Source: an uncultured Gemmatimonadales bacterium (GTDB lineage Bacteria; Gemmatimonadota; Gemmatimonadetes; Gemmatimonadales; GWC2-71-9). Taken from it: DNA of 64,000 bases. This document shows, in pieces, positions 32,101-41,100 of this stretch (positions within the stretch are counted from its first letter, which is position 1; each line of letters starts with the position of its first letter). The stretch spans positions 96,001 through 160,000 of the forward strand of contig CAVSQW010000015.1 in the NCBI GenBank assembly GCA_963730185.1. The letters are read 5' to 3'. The position numbers were made by a program.

Positions 32101-35100
32101 GGCCGGGGCGGCGCTCCCGGCCGCCGTGAAGGCCACCACCGCGTAGGTGGTGTCGACCGAGCCGCTGTCGGCGTGGCCGCGGAGCACCGCCAGGGCGAGG
32201 CCGCTGTCGGCCCAGGCCAGCTTCCGATAGATGGCCTCGGCGCCGTCCAGCGTGCGGACCTGATCGGTAGCCAGGTTCCGCACCTGCACGCCGTTGCCGA
32301 CCAGGTCCTTCGCCGCCGTGGTCCAGGCCAGCTGGGTGCCGTCCTTGTCGATCGCCCACTCGCCGACCGAGCCGATGGTGGTGGTGACGCCGCTCCGGAG
32401 ATCGGCCAAGAGCAGGTCCGACTCGCTTGCTCCCTGGGCGGGATATCGTTCCAGCACCAGCCAGGCCGGGTGGTCACCCGCGAACCGGAAGCCCCGGACC
32501 TTCTCGAACTCCCGCTTGGTGCCGGTGGACAGGCTCAACAGGGTGACCGAGTTCTGGGCTGGCTTCTTCTCCTTTTCGAGCTTCTTGGCCGCCGCGGCCG
32601 TCGGATAGACGGTGAACGCGAGCCAGTGGCCGTCGCCCGAGATCAACACCGAAGGGTCCCGTCGGGCGCCGAACCCGCCGCCGGACGGCGGCTCGCCGAT
32701 CGGAAAACGTCGTTCGGTCGCCTCCGCCCCGGTCGACCGCACCACCAGCTCGGCATCGCCCTCGTTGGGTGCCAGGACGTAGGCGAACCAGGCTCCGTCG
32801 GCGGAGAGCGCCGGATCGCGGATGCTCTTCCAGAAGTCGAGGTTCGCCGGGTCGAGCGGTCGCTGGCCGGTCGGCGCTTGCGCGGTGGCGACGTTCAGTC
32901 CGGACAGGCCGATCAACAGGCCGGCCGCGACGAGCAGGGAGCGCGTCTTGGGCATGCAGGTACCGTCCTCAGGGGGTGGGCCGGCCGCCGTGAGACGGCC
33001 GAAGGGTCGGCGACGATCGCTCCAATGTGGCCCCGAACGGCGGCGAGGCCCAGCCCGCTGGGGTGGGCCGGACCTCAGGACGGGCGCGGTGCCGCCGCGC
33101 CCGCCGTCGAGGAGGGGTCGAGCCGATACCCCAATCTAGTGTTCTCTGGGCTCATCGGGACGAGAGCACGAACTGGTTGCCGTCGGGATCCTTGAAGATG
33201 GCGGCCGTGCCCCAGTCGGCTTCCTTCGGCTCCTGCACGAACTCGACCCCGCGCGCGGCGAGCTCTCGATGGGTCGCCCGCACGTCGTCCGCCAGAAACG
33301 AGATCCCGGTGAACATGCCGATCCGGGCCTCGTGCCCGGGCGGAGTGAAGAGGACGACGCCGGTCTGGGCCTTGGGAATGCCCAGCTCGATCCAGCGCAT
33401 CCGGTTGTCGAACGGCTGGTCGGTGACGACCTTGAAGCCCAACTTCCCGGTGTAGAACGCGAGGGCGCGATCTTGATCAGTGACGGGAATGCTGGCGAAC
33501 TTGAGGGCCTTGATCATGAGGACGGTTCCGGTTGTGGGTGGGACCTGGACCGCGAACGGCGCGGCGGTCCCCCAAGATTTGGCCGGCCGTCCCGCCGGAC
33601 AAGCCGGGCAGACGCTGCCATGGCAGCCACTACTATGGCATTCCCTGCCAATCAGAGGACGACCCGCCATGAGCCTCTCCCTCGACGCCCACGTCGTCGA
33701 CGTCCTGATGCCGGATCTGGTCGGTCACGACCGTCACGCGTCGGCGTTCGTGACCTATCTGTTCCTCTGGCGACGTACCCATGGGGCGGACCGGGACGAC
33801 CTCAGGATCAGTCTCGCCGACATCGCCGAGGGGACCGGGCTCTCGAAGCGGGCGGTGCAGGAAGCGCTCAACCGCCTGGTGCGGCGGCAGCTCGCGTCGG
33901 TGAGTCGGGAGAGCATCACCGCGGTGCCGGTCTATCGGGTCCTCCGGCCCTGGCGGTCGTGGGACCCTAGCAGAGAATGATGCCGCCGTTGATGTCGATC
34001 GCCGCGCCGTTGATGTAGCCGGCCCGCTCCGACGCGATGAACGCCACCAGGTCCGCCACCTCGCCCGGCCGCCCGATCCGCCTCACCGGCACGACCGTGC
34101 GCTCGAGCTCGGCCAGCCGCTCGGGGCTCGCGGTCTCCCGGATCAAGCCGGTGTCGGTCAGGCCGGGGCAGACGCAGTTCACCGTGATCCCGAACGGTCC
34201 CAGCTCGCGCGCGGCGGCCCGGGTCAGCCCGAGCAGGCCATGCTTGGACGCGGTGTAGTGCGCGCCGCCCAGGGTGCTCACCGTCTTGCTGGCGGTCGAG
34301 CCGATGTTCACGATCCGCCCGTAGCCGGCGTCGCGCATGGCCGGGAGTGCCACCCGGAGCAGGAGAAAGGGCGCGGTGAGATTCACGTCGACCGCCCGCC
34401 GCCACTCGTCGATCCCGAGCTCGGGGAGCCGAGTCGGGCTCGCGAAGGCTGCGTTGTTGACCAGAATGTCGAGGCGGCCGTGGGCCTCGAGCACCGTCTC
34501 CACGACGTCGGCGGCCTCGTCCGGCCGGCTCACGTCGCCGGGGGCGGCCATAGCCCCGGCGCCGAGCTCGCCCGCGAGGGCCACGGCCCGCTCCCGCTCC
34601 CGGACGTTCACCGCCACCCGCGCCCCGCGCTCGAGCAGCACCTCGGCGATAGCCCGGCCGATTCCCCGGCGGGCCCCGGTCACCAGCGCCACTCGCCCGT
34701 CGAAGTCGGCCATGAGGGGCTCCACGTTTGGGGGTAGCTGGAATGTAGAGGGCCAGGCCACCGCCCGGAGGAGCCTGGCGGAGCTGAAGGAAGACGGGAG
34801 ACGGCTCGCCCGCCCGCCCGCCAATCGCCTCCCCGTGCCTGTCCGTCGGAGGCGCCGATCCCTAGATTTGTCTTCAGCCTGGAGGCTCCCCATGGAATAC
34901 GAGTCGATCGTCGAGGTTCTGGGATATGCCACCGGTCACGAGCGGCAGGTTCGGATCACCACCACCGATGCCCGCGAGGTGGTCGGTGTGCCGACCAGCC
35001 TCGACCCCGACATCGGCGCCCTCGAGGTGTACCTTCACCCGGTCGGGGCGGACGATGTCGAGATCGCGATCTCTCTCGCCCAGATCGCCCGAGTGGACAT

Positions 35101-38100: not shown

Positions 38101-41100
38101 CCGGGATGTCGGACAAGAGCGCCTTCGAGTCGTTCGATCGGGTGGCCGAAAAGATCGAGGCAATCGAACGGAAGGCGCTGGCCGCGGCGGAGCTCCAGCA
38201 GGAGTTCCAGACCGACGACCTGACCGCCCAGTTCAAGCAGCTGGAGTACAAGGGCTCGGCCGACCAGCAGCTCATCGACCTCAAGAGCAAGATGGGGCTC
38301 CTGGGCAAGGGTGAAGCTGCCAAGCAGATCGGGAAGGGTGCCGACCAGGTCGACGACGCCGAGGTCGTCGAGGACGAAACCGACGCTCACTGACCCCGGC
38401 CGAGCCGGGGGCCTCGAGCGGGCGGGGGGGAATCCCCGCCCGCTCGGCGTTACAGCTTGGTCGCTTGACCCGGGCCGGGTTTAGCATACAATTCTGTATA
38501 CGAAGCCCGGGCTGGCCCCGGCATCCGCATCCCGAGAACGACGACCCATGCCCGAGCCTCGCTACCTCATCATCGCCGACGGCAACTTCCACCCGTTGGA
38601 GTCGAAGACGGCCAACTCGGTGATCCGATATCATCCCCAGCGGGTGGTCGGGGTTGTGGACCGGCAAACCGCCGGCAAGACCGTCCAGGACATTCTGGGC
38701 TTCGGCGGCCCCACCCCGATCGTCGGCTCGATCGAGGCCGGGCTGGCCCTCAAGCCCAACGCGGTGATGATCGGCATCGCCCCGGCCGGCGGGCGGCTGC
38801 CCGACGAGTGGCGGGGGTGGCTGGTCAAGTCGTTGGAGGCGGGGTGTGACCTGATCAGCGGACTCCACACCTTCCTCGGCGACGATCCCGTGCTGGCCGC
38901 CGCGGCGGCCAAACACGGCCGGACGATCACCGACGCCCGGAAGGCGCCTGCCAACCTGCTGATTGCGGCCGGGCAGGCCCGCCTGGTCGAGCCGTTCGTG
39001 ATCCTGACCGTCGGCACGGACTGCAACGTCGGCAAGATGACCGCGCAGCTTCAGCTGACCCAAGCTCTCAAGGCCCGGAAGGTCAGGACCAACTTCGTTG
39101 CGACCGGCCAGACCGGCATCTTCATCGAGGGGTGGGGCACCGCCGTGGATGCGGTGGTGGCGGACTTCATCGGTGGCGCCGCCGAGGAGTTGGTGCTTCG
39201 GGGCGCCAAGGATGCCGACATCGTGATGGTCGAAGGGCAGGGGAGCATCAACCATCCGGGCTACTCCGGGGTGACGCTCGGGTTGCTCCACGGCTCCTGC
39301 CCCGATGCGATGATCCTTTGCCATCAAGCCAGCCGGGACCACATCGGGGAGTACCGGACCACACCCTGGCTCCGGATTCCGCCCCTGTCCAAGTACGTGG
39401 AGATGTACGAGCTGATCGGCTCGGCCGTCCACCCCACTCGGGTCATCGGGATCTCGCTCAACACCTACGACCTGTCTCCCGAGGCCGCCCAGGCCGCGTG
39501 TCGGGCGGCGTCGGAGGAGACCGGGCTCCCGTGCACCGACCCGGTCCGCTTCGACTCCGCGCCCTTGGTCAACGCGATCCTCCGGGAGCGCGAGGCCTAC
39601 CTGGAGCGGCGGGCCCTCTTCCGAGACTGACCCACCCTCAGCGGGCGTCCGCGCGAATCAGCTCGGCCGCCCGCTCCCCGATCATCACCGAAGGCGCGTG
39701 GGTGTGACCGGTCGGAATGGCCGGCATGACGGACGCGTCGGCGACCCACAGATTCTCGAGGCCCCGAACCTGGAGCCGCTCGGACACCACGGCCTCGGAC
39801 CCCTGGCCGATCCGGCAGGTGCCGACCGGGTGGTACAGCGTCTCCGCCCGATGGCGGATGAACGGCTCCAGCGGCTCCTTGCCCGGCAGAACCTCGTCGC
39901 TCCGGAACTCGGCCAGCTCCGGCGCTCGGCCGAGGTGTCGGGCCAGCTTGAGTCCCGCCAAGAGGCGGGGCAGATCGGCGGGGGCGGAGAGGTACCGAGG
40001 GCGGATGGCCGGCGGCGCCTCGGGGTCGGCCGAGGTGAGGCCGATCCGCCCGCGGCTCTCGGGGTGCTGGAGGATGGCGGCCACGGTAAACCCGGAGCCG
40101 GGGAGCTTCGTGAAACCGTGGTCCACGAAGAAGGTCGGAGCGACCAGGAGTTCCACGTCGGGCGCCCGGCCGCCCCGCTCGAGCCGCACGAAGGCGCCGG
40201 CCTCCGCCACATTGGAAGTGAGGGGACCGGTCCGCCGGACGAGATACCGGAGCACGCTGAACAGTCCTTCGGCCCGGTCGAGGGTGACCGGCTTCGGGCA
40301 CTCGAACAGGGCGCCGATGGCGAGGTGGTCCTGGAGGTTGCCGCCGACTCCCGGCAGCTCGTGGTGCACCGCGATTCCCAAGGGCTCGAGGTCTTCCGCG
40401 GGGCCGACCCCCGAACGGAGCAGCAGCAGCGGCGACCCAATCGCTCCAGTCGCGAGCACCACACGGCCCCGGACCTCGGTCACGCTGGTGGTGCCGGCCC
40501 GGCGAAAGGCGACCCCCACGGCCCGGCGGCCGTCGAACCGGATCCAGTGGGCGGTTGCGTCGGTGAGGACGGTGAGGTTCGGCCGGCCGGCAGCGGGGGT
40601 GAGGTAGCCGTCGGCCGCGCTGACCCGGGCCCCGCGACGCTGCGTGACCCGGAAGAGCCCCACCCCGTCGAGCGAACCGGAGGCGAAACCGTCGTTCGGC
40701 AGGAGGCCGTGGGCCAGCCCCGCCGCGACGAACGCCGCTGCGATCGGATTCACGGTGCGGAGCTCGGCGATCGGAATCCCCGACGCGTGATCGGATTCCG
40801 CTCGCTCCGCCCGCTCGAAGGCGGGCGCCACGTCGTCCCAGGCCCATCCCGCCGCGCCCAGCTCGACCCAGCGGTCGAAGTCCTCGCGGGCCGGACGGGT
40901 CCAGATCATGGCATTGATGGCACTCGACCCGCCGAGGAGCCGGCCGCGGGGCCAGTAGAGGCGCCGGGCGGCGAGCTCCGGCTCGGGCTCGGTCTCGAAG
41001 GCCCAGTCCCACCGAGTCTTGAAGAGGCGCGAGAACGCCGCCGGGATCCGGCTCTCGCGGGGGACGCGAGCGGGGCCGGCCTCGAGGAGCACGACTTGGA

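Follow-up and report, generated by a model that had tools for sequence, protein, structure and literature searches.

We describe here an array of six genes for small membrane proteins that directly precedes a CesT/Tir-like gene and then pspA, all on the + strand, in a window of 64,000 nucleotides (the whole stretch of DNA analysed) from an uncultured Gemmatimonadales bacterium (Table 1). The ORF listing and the sequence place six consecutive same-strand genes, with products of 90-126 aa, at positions 35235-37193 of the + strand, and the listing and Pfam agree with the genome-wide survey's note, which had reported six tandem paralogues of this size before a CesT/YbjN-like gene and pspA. The range given in that note had started at 34892; the product of 34892-35107 proved to be a non-member that folds like an Sm/Hfq protein, its top Foldseek matches being Hfq (TM 0.73, E 1.6e-3). 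A Pfam search of this product gave no match, and homologues of it are present in 13 of 60 loci.

Table 1. Features of the array and its surroundings, in window coordinates
Feature	Position	Strand	Description
Sm/Hfq-like protein	34892..35107	+	71 aa; non-member neighbour 5' of promoter-like site; AlphaFold2 pLDDT 95.8
ECF sigma (sigma-W-type) promoter-like site	35118..35144	+	TGAAAC-N17-CGTA; begins 117 nt before copy 1
Copy 1	35235..35516	+	93 aa; one TM helix; tail EERLDFSERLL; profile E 8e-26
Copy 2	35513..35812	+	99 aa; one TM helix; tail EERLDFTERLL; overlap with copy 1 ATGA
Copy 3	35809..36180	+	123 aa; proline-rich N-terminus; one TM helix; tail EERMDFSERLL; overlap with copy 2 ATGA
Copy 4	36177..36449	+	90 aa; one TM helix; tail AERVDFAERLL; overlap with copy 3 GTGA
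Copy 5	36446..36826	+	126 aa; GTG start; two hydrophobic segments; tail EERVDFTERLL; overlap with copy 4 GTGA
Copy 6	36861..37193	+	110 aa; two TM helices; juxtamembrane RGPLGQALARR helix; tail EERVDFSERLL
CesT/Tir-like (YbjN-like) chaperone-fold protein	37229..37624	+	131 aa; CesT_Tir_1 PF22550, E 2.1e-23
PspA/IM30 (ESCRT-III-type)	37632..38393	+	253 aa; PspA_IM30 PF04012, E 1.6e-46
G+C-rich hairpin, 15 bp	38414..38447	+	21 nt past pspA stop

Four of the array junctions are 4-nt ATGA or GTGA overlaps, and the other gaps as far as pspA measure 34, 35 and 7 nt, the last separating the CesT/Tir-like gene from pspA; in the arrays of the sampled loci, 143 of 160 internal gaps are 40 nt or shorter, 76 of them being 0 or less. 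The CesT/Tir-like product scores 83.1 bits against PF22550 (cut-off 27), and a gene of this type lies directly 5' of pspA in 41 of 60 sampled loci. The pspA product matches PF04012 over its full length (159.1 bits against a cut-off of 33.9; positions 1-217 of 220) and is the single match found in the genome, as the survey had claimed. Downstream, the fold of 38396-38465 reaches -52.1 kcal/mol (z -4.83), with none of 200 shuffles equally stable, and the hairpin within it likely marks the operon end; a terminator scan did not call it, and no T run follows it.

Protein architecture and the tail motif

In all six proteins, one or two membrane helices at the N-terminus are joined by a linker to a long C-terminal helix bearing (E)ERxDFxERLL. 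Of the single TM helix that the survey's note had assigned to each protein, copies 1-4 conform and copies 5 and 6 depart, each having two hydrophobic segments; among 199 array copies, one such segment is found in 156 and two in 25. The AlphaFold2 model of copy 6 (pLDDT 90.5) places helices at residues 2-28, 30-49, 51-60 and 71-109, that is, two TM helices and a short helix, separated from a single long helix by a low-confidence linker. Alignment of the six copies shows E-R-x-D-F-x-E-R-L-L to be invariant, so that the E-E-R-x-D-F-x-E-R-L-L motif noted earlier holds except for its first E, AER replacing EER in copy 4.

Conservation is highest in the tail helix, which is predicted to be cytoplasmic from the basic residues past the anchor, and exceeds that of the membrane segment, which is variable. 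Since R.[DE]F.ER is present in 190 of 199 copies upstream of pspA (61 loci) and the profile search returned 3460 cluster representatives at E<=1e-3, neither the family nor the conservation of its motif is a matter of chance. Numbered relative to the F, positions -16, -13, -9, -6, -2, +1 and +5 form the heptad core, and heptad positions g, b, c, e and f are occupied by R(-3), D(-1), F(0), E(+2) and R(+3), all of them invariant. Because these five residues sit outside the core, their arrangement suggests a putative exposed binding patch.

A Pfam and NCBIfam search of the six copies gave no family model at its cut-off, in keeping with the earlier claim. The label tetrahydromethanopterin S-methyltransferase subunit G (MtrG), already suspected in the survey of being a chance likeness, was rejected as such: TIGR01149 matches 3 of 43 members (best E 0.03) and PF04210 one protein (E 0.016), both at chance level. 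DUF5798 (PF19111) was likewise rejected, with 3 of 43 members matched, of which P0120 alone just passes (28.2 bits against 27); in the genome scan all PF19111 matches fall below the cut-off, and the model also matches all 14 control genomes at E<=1.

Distribution, gene order and the promoter motif

The genome holds 15 family profile matches, 6 of them in the array, and a relaxed motif finds 14, so the eight copies counted in the survey were too few. Every named record among the best 80 genomic loci is from the Gemmatimonadota. About half of all copies belong to psp arrays (6/15 in this genome and 35/62 in five others), the rest (9/15 and 27/62) lying outside the psp locus. The profile matches 162 of 177 PspA-positive genomes and 1 of 24 PspA-negative ones, a contrast confounded by kinship, with four unpublished genomes in the tallies.

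Gene order was compared in one PspA locus per genus, with families labelled f1-f8. Directly upstream of pspA and on the same strand lie 2-12 family genes in all 33 f1 genera and both f3 genera, so that the gene-order link, with arrays in 35/35 genera of these two families, is stronger than the survey had claimed. Families f8, f6 and f5 have diverged single copies at pspA: in L056, L058, L060 and L068 a lone TM plus coiled-coil gene with the tail EEQxF(M/L)xxLL stands 3-16 nt before the CesT-like gene, and in L057 a profile match occupies the same place. PspA loci of f2 (0/12) and of f7 and f4 (0/7) have no such gene, and PspA therefore works without one there. The CesT-like gene is itself undetectable in 19 of 33 f1 genera; a role exerted through its product therefore cannot be general. 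The only context common to many copies and many genera is pspA.

A conserved ECF-type promoter motif heads the array and is predicted to be its promoter; TGAAAC (-35) and CGTA (-10) are described in the consulted part of PMC5758882 as sigma-W-type elements. The site that begins at window position 35118 lies at contig position 131118. In 14 of the 16 loci from the window's own group of genera (the window and L009-L023), TGAAAC-N16/17-CGTA is found at most 260 nt ahead of the gene that opens the array, and across 60 loci the strict motif gives 24 sites, against 0-4 in each of eight composition-matched controls. TGAAAC-N16/17-CGTA also precedes the CesT-like gene in 4 array-less loci. In some genera the ECF motif stands downstream of the array (L023, L034) or precedes just its last copy (L026, L033, L035-L037), so co-regulation of an entire array is not a universal feature.

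Proposed role and rival explanations

From the architecture, conservation, gene order and promoter motif observed, we propose, at roughly even confidence, that the array proteins are putative PspB/LiaI-like membrane receptors and/or stress sensors of PspA. The six genes represent a Gemmatimonadales-specific family of small inner-membrane proteins with a variable anchor of one or two helices. On the predicted cytoplasmic side, the anchor leads into a basic juxtamembrane helix and then, across a flexible linker, into a helix of ~40 residues spaced like a leucine zipper, the outer face of which would carry the invariant E-R-x-D-F-x-E-R polar/aromatic patch. The array, the CesT-like gene and pspA would form one envelope-stress operon, presumably co-transcribed from the ECF sigma-type promoter. 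Acting as PspA receptors and/or sensors in the manner of PspB/PspC, LiaI and YdjG/YdjH, the proteins would oligomerise through the zipper, possibly as mixed paralogue oligomers; PspA, or its CesT-like companion, would dock on the exposed patch, and the divergent membrane segments would tune the site or timing. We infer the 'new partner family' of the survey's note from synteny and architecture, and the term stays conditional because copies also occur outside the psp locus and f2 PspA loci lack the gene. A bolder version, which we consider unlikely, would make the family bacterial ESCRT-III (PspA) partners unrelated to PspB, PspC and LiaI, in which a common ERxDFxER zipper docking patch is combined with divergent anchors (TM2-domain, murJ-adjacent, PadR/ABC-adjacent) that guide PspA to different sites or report different envelope damage, up to 12 tandem copies acting as a sensor array that feeds one repair polymer.

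It is somewhat unlikely that the array proteins are instead true, very divergent homologues of PspB, that is, a known family tandemly amplified and not a new one. PspB has the same plan of an N-terminal anchor and a cytoplasmic helix, and its duplicates are known in psp operons (both from the consulted part of PMC11237479). Remote homology is hinted at in three ways: TIGR02976 (PspB; cut-off 51.7 bits) is the commonest sub-threshold match (21/43 members, best E 0.0017), hhalign of A2 against enterobacterial PspB gives a probability of 43% (E 2.5e-4, 24 columns), and PspB is the closest Pfam-named Atlas cluster (score 0.77). With the family HMM, E. coli PspB obtains 8.7 bits, a score that 31 of 2000 shuffles of its C-terminal part reach. 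Against this, all 43 members stay below the curated cut-offs of TIGR02976 and PF06667 (best E for the latter 0.12), a PF06667 scan of the genome misses all 15 copies (its sole match, at E 0.9, is unrelated), and the enterobacterial PspB profile is narrow, its rows being all at least 82% identical. The PspB counterpart proposed in the survey gains weak support from the three hints and stays below every curated cut-off. The hhalign and TIGR02976 alignments moreover differ in register (offsets 28 and 34), which would be typical of heptad periodicity, not of homology. A PspC domain is also absent from the operon, the genome's only PspC-domain gene lying on contig C8.

We consider it doubtful that the tail serves more generally, close to the membrane, as a module for oligomerisation or signalling, and that it has as its partner not PspA but a regulator (of PadR or GerE type, or the ECF sigma system) or its own paralogues, the array standing in the psp operon merely through a common envelope-stress regulon. 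The nine non-array copies of this genome have conserved contexts of their own, one of them PadR followed by ABC genes, and dispersed copies form orthologous groups with conserved neighbours: a PadR gene lies directly upstream in L003 and L089; a GerE/sigma-70 region 4 regulator adjoins the copies in L002 and L073; MacB/FtsX permeases stand beside those in L005 and L077; a TM2 fusion is followed by MatE in L079 and L086; and, in 3/3 genomes checked, bshC and murJ flank an EENxFLxRLL subtype. Such neighbours make a more general membrane module possible, as does the copy at C8:147133-147639, which has no membrane segment in the part displayed, and PadR-linked membrane signalling partners occur around PSP genes according to the consulted part of PMC11237479. 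Yet pspA is the sole context shared by many copies in many genera, the diverged single-copy form of other families also stands at pspA, and an invariant exposed patch on differently anchored proteins better fits one common partner. It is very improbable that the array proteins are membrane-perturbing or structural clients or stressors against which PspA protects: copy number varies (2-12), membrane segments are variable and divergence is fast (orthologues from two genomes of one genus are 46-59% identical, against 86% for PspA), but conservation peaks in the cytoplasmic helix and not in the membrane segment, anti-phage defence models do not match the family, and a membrane-damaging property is purely putative.

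PspA/Vipp1/ESCRT-III proteins carry out membrane repair across all domains of life. To our knowledge, how they are delivered to damaged membrane is understood in few model bacteria only, each with a different small membrane partner. The locus offers a large, sharply defined and unannotated family linked to pspA by gene order in many genera, with an 11-residue motif invariant enough for mutation and a recognisable stress promoter motif ahead of the array. If the tails bind PspA, they would be a new receptor type and show receptor amplification at work in nature; otherwise, the family would still be an unnamed, abundant Gemmatimonadales envelope module now annotated as 'hypothetical'.

Comparison with known PspA partner systems

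Like PspB of the E. coli/Yersinia psp systems, the array proteins are small and encoded beside pspA, with an N-terminal anchor in the inner membrane and a helix predicted to lie in the cytoplasm. They differ in length (90-126 aa against 74) and in their invariant ERxDFxERLL, whose signature DFxERLL has no PspB counterpart; the array precedes pspA, lacks a neighbouring pspC and comprises 2-12 tandem copies in addition to dispersed ones. Its promoter motif is of ECF type, whereas E. coli psp is under sigma-54/PspF (consulted part of PMC9239133).

PspM (Rv2743c, from the actinobacterial clgR-pspA-pspM-pspN) is likewise a lineage-specific membrane partner encoded with pspA; its model NF047839 gave chance-level matches to 2 of 43 members (best E 0.016) and no significant similarity. 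PspM probably differs from the array proteins in topology and size.

The last two genes of the operon (PF22550 and PF04012) exactly match the CesT/Tir-PspA dyad of Ravi et al. 2024 (PMC11237479); the main text of that paper contains no word beginning 'Gemmatimon', and its consulted part does not mention the tandem family.

LiaI (liaIH) and YdjG/YdjH (pspA-ydjGHI) of B. subtilis are also small membrane proteins encoded with a PspA homologue, with which they are co-transcribed and which they anchor at the membrane (consulted part of PMC8581546). Profile searches found no similarity of the array proteins to LiaI, YdjG or YdjH, each of which is encoded by one gene, has another topology and lacks a coiled-coil tail, and, unlike the B. 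subtilis comparison system, the array operon holds no SPFH protein. The B. subtilis pspA-ydjGHI operon depends on sigma-W (same part of PMC8581546), and its promoter is of the sigma-W-type ECF class, like the motif ahead of the array.

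Gene order at the pspA locus

The genome-wide survey's note had placed a tandem array of small membrane-protein genes before a CesT-like gene and pspA, and this arrangement is real and far beyond chance. Copies 1-5 are joined by successive 4-nt overlaps (ATGA or GTGA), gaps of 34, 35 and 7 nt follow from copy 5 on to pspA, and compact spacing recurs elsewhere: of 160 intra-array gaps in arrays upstream of pspA from 61 loci, 143 do not exceed 40 nt and 76 do not exceed 0 nt. The terminator scan called none after pspA; the hairpin listed at 38414-38447 came from separate folding.

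Features of the array and its flanks (window coordinates)
Feature	Position	Strand	Description
71-aa Sm/Hfq-like gene	34892-35107	+	AlphaFold2 barrel, pLDDT 95.8; not a family member
TGAAAC-N17-CGTA	35118-35144		upstream of copy 1; candidate sigma-W-type promoter, motif match
Copy 1	35235-35516	+	93 aa
Copy 2	35513-35812	+	99 aa
Copy 3	35809-36180	+	123 aa
Copy 4	36177-36449	+	90 aa
Copy 5	36446-36826	+	126 aa, GTG start
Copy 6	36861-37193	+	110 aa
CesT_Tir_1 protein	37229-37624	+	PF22550, E 2.1e-23
PspA/IM30	37632-38393	+	E 1.6e-46
15-bp G+C-rich hairpin	38414-38447		3' of pspA stop; fold -52.1 kcal/mol, z -4.83

One PspA locus per genus was sampled from 60 genera, including up to 9 kb before pspA as far as the contigs reached, and the 60 loci were searched using the family profile together with the PspA, CesT-like and 71-aa proteins of the window. 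Every genus sampled from two family-level groups of Gemmatimonadota genomes, f1 (33/33) and f3 (2/2), has 2-12 family genes immediately before pspA and in its orientation. Both f3 loci and 14 of the 33 from f1 carry the CesT-like gene between the array and pspA; in the remaining 19 f1 loci, pspA is abutted by the last family gene. Loci of group f2 hold the CesT-like gene and pspA only (family gene upstream of pspA in 0/12), and three of 13 loci from groups f4-f8 gave one profile match at E<1e-3. In L056, L058, L060 and L068 the CesT-like gene follows, after 3-16 nt, a single gene for a TM plus coiled-coil protein with a tail reading EEQxF(M/L)xxLL or similar, and L057 has a profile match in the same position. 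Since these single, diverged genes precede the CesT-like gene in other families, the triad of small protein, CesT-like protein and PspA is older than the EERxDFxERLL form, which underwent amplification in f1 and f3. The array is collinear with that of L009, from a genome of the window's genus, and its orthologues are 46-59% identical versus 86% for PspA; array genes therefore diverge fast outside the tail.

The 71-aa protein has no Pfam or NCBIfam match; its best Foldseek matches are Hfq (TM 0.73, E 1.6e-3, 14% identity), and its homologues, seen in 13 of the 60 loci (L009-L019, L021, L022), always precede the array. By eye, L-serine dehydratase-like genes were seen upstream of CesT-pspA in the f2 loci L044-L054, and some f1 loci have them between their Sm-like gene and array. 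These positions suggest that the array went in between sda genes on one side and CesT-pspA on the other. In L013 (7738-8628, minus strand) the Sm-like frame, again by eye, continues into L-serine dehydratase-like sequence as a 296-aa ORF.

Range and architecture of the family

By the family profile, the window's genome holds 15 copies, six of them in the array (six-frame ORFs of at least 40 aa, n=62,052), and a relaxed motif finds 14, each 8-27 residues ahead of a stop; the eight copies counted in the survey's note are therefore too few. A word-based search with copy 6 returned 160 proteins at E<=0.01, and searching 1.84 billion representatives with the profile gave 3460 matches at E<=1e-3, of which 967 had E<=1e-10. 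In a one-genome-per-species scan 472 stretches were confirmed; 79 of the best 80 have Gemmatimonadota, -ales, -aceae or -etes in their titles, and the other is titled 'uncultured bacterium'. Within the phylum the profile matches 163 of 201 genomes, and PspA is present in 177 of the same set (both tallies take in four unpublished genomes, G057, G182, G157 and G097, which the fetched loci exclude). Matching genomes comprise 96/96 in f1 in addition to the window's own (2-20 matches each), 3/3 in f3, 23/38 in f2, weakly, 40/42 in f4-f8 (1-5 matches each) and 0/21 in f9-f12.

Identity to copy 1 is just 32-50% among the copies, and in the alignment E-R-x-D-F-x-E-R-L-L near the C-terminus is invariant in all six; every Pfam and NCBIfam model falls below cut-off on them. 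The AlphaFold2 model of copy 6 (43-row alignment, mean pLDDT 90.5) predicts membrane-length helices at residues 2-28 and 30-49, a short basic helix at 51-60 (RGPLGQALARR), a low-confidence linker at 61-70 and a single long helix at 71-109. By a simple hydrophobicity scale, the 199 copies that precede pspA in 61 loci comprise 156 with a single hydrophobic segment, 25 with two and 18 with none, the last probably reflecting the choice of start codon. Because basic residues come after the anchor, the tail would lie in the cytoplasm. When 190 copies are aligned on the Phe, hydrophobic positions -16, -13, -9, -6, -2, +1 and +5 form a heptad core with 3-4 spacing, and of the invariant residues R(-3) falls at heptad position g, D(-1) at b, F(0) at c, E(+2) at e and R(+3) at f. 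We infer that the tail would act as an oligomerising zipper presenting a conserved patch to another molecule.

Several candidate identities were set aside. The best solved-structure matches, to PufX (E 0.06) and to tropomyosin (E 0.22), were judged chance likeness of coiled coils or membrane segments; the tropomyosin stretch ETRAEFAERS (PDB 2d3e/8zbk), which resembles EERxDFAERLL, is likewise read as chance, and its likeness shows that a canonical two-stranded coiled coil can accommodate the family motif. Recurrent sub-threshold Pfam matches to V-SNARE_C, NPR1_like_C and WD40_alt were judged compositional, and matches to MtrG and DUF5798 were at chance level. A likeness of the tail to ESCRT-III MIM1 motifs was dropped for a mismatch in pattern. 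PADLOC found no defence family among the small proteins, and its weak JetC match on PspA looks like coiled-coil noise.

Candidate promoter and copies outside the array

The sigma-70 scan called no promoter ahead of the array; the ECF motif came from a separate search, and a sigma-54 promoter sought by eye in 35108-35234 was dropped for its wrong spacing. Scanning 61 loci (1.38 Mb counting both strands) with TGAAA[CT]-N16/17-CGT[AT] gave 27 sites, 18 of which lie within 260 nt upstream of the operon's first gene: 14 fall in 16 loci (the window and L009-L023) and four precede the CesT-like gene in the array-less loci L050, L053, L054 and L067. Another seven, in L023, L026 and L033-L037, are found -169 to -586 from pspA, where they either follow the array or precede its last copy, and the remaining two comprise one before the single small gene of L056 and one elsewhere. 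Sites of the strict motif number 24 in the 60 loci versus 0-4 in eight composition-matched controls, and 24 in the window's genome versus 0-12 in controls, with just the 35118 site in the window. These 24 genomic sites may constitute an ECF-type regulon. In B. subtilis, a tgaAAC -35 and a CGTA -10 have been linked with sigma-W (PMC5758882), which controls pspA-ydjGHI (PMC8581546). Sequencing runs matching the window's locus were soil-metagenome DNA with small shares, and no RNA run was among them. The sites in the window's genome stand nearly always 1-85 nt before an ORF, and the ORFs behind them include, by N-terminal sequence, PadR-like regulators and several permeases of ~810 aa resembling FtsX/MacB.

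Five other genomes yielded 62 profile matches, 35 within the psp array and 27 outside it, and Pfam scans of neighbours resolve the dispersed copies into orthologous groups, each with its own contexts. A PadR gene is directly upstream of a family member in L003:3371-6500 (contig C5 of the window's genome) and L089:2078-3210, and in L003 an ABC ATPase and an ABC-2 permease come after the member; a Toastrack (DUF4097) gene was also seen there, 0.6 kb past the permease on the opposite strand. Copies are adjoined by a MacB/FtsX permease in L005 and L077, and by a GerE/sigma-70 region 4 regulator in L002 and L073. The coiled-coil tail forms a fusion with a TM2 domain in L001:4470-4844 (contig C1 of the window's genome; PF05154, E 9e-20) and, by sequence, in L079, L086 and L090, with a MatE transporter gene next in L079 and L086. 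A subtype with an EE(N/T)xFLxRL(L/I) tail lies directly upstream of murJ (lipid II flippase) in L075:2944-3228, L078:3002-3283 and L083:2966-3253, with bshC on its opposite side in L078 and L083, and was not found in the window's genome, which is 82% complete. Given these varied fusions and contexts, the tail is a module set on several anchors. The murJ-adjacent subtype resembles the single copy before CesT-pspA in other families. One further profile match in the window's genome (contig C8:147133-147639, minus strand; E 6.8e-6) has the tail QERVDFLERTIV and a Cys-containing stretch before the coiled coil, with no membrane segment in the part of its sequence that was covered; this copy may represent a soluble version of the module.

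Candidate partners of PspA and the relation to PspB

Deep and repeated conservation of gene order, the operon structure, a stress-type promoter in common and a plan like that of PspB together make membrane receptors or sensors of PspA the best-supported reading of the family, to which we give about even chances. The main alternative is that the family forms a general membrane-anchored zipper module of an envelope-stress regulon, with a partner other than PspA.

PspB is the known protein closest in plan to the family, and that the members are remote PspB homologues is an unlikely but substantive alternative. Several comparisons point that way: TIGR02976 is the commonest sub-threshold NCBIfam match (21/43 members, best E 0.0017), PF06667 matches 4/43, and hhalign of the family against 16 enterobacterial PspB sequences gave a probability of 43% (E 2.5e-4, 24 columns) with a narrow PspB profile, relatives of E. 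coli PspB being all at least 72% identical among the 120 matches listed. With the family HMM, E. coli PspB scored 8.7 bits (range for the 16 PspB 5.1-11.7), a value reached by 31 of 2000 shuffles of the PspB C-terminal part, and the nearest Pfam-named Atlas cluster is PspB (0.77), rated a lead only. However, the family reaches none of the PspB model cut-offs, the heptad register of the family-PspB alignment differs between methods, the DFxERLL signature is without counterpart in PspB, and pspC is not adjacent to the array.

A literature search found no publication on PspA in Gemmatimonadota among the papers listed, judged by title and abstract, and no word beginning 'Gemmatimon' occurs in the main text of Ravi et al. 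2024 (PMC11237479) or of Popp et al. 2022 (PMC9239133). Sections of the former describe a CesT/Tir-PspA dyad, PspB duplicates and divergent PspB. Among the known kinds of PspA partner, the putative partner family described here would be new, lineage-specific and unusually amplified.
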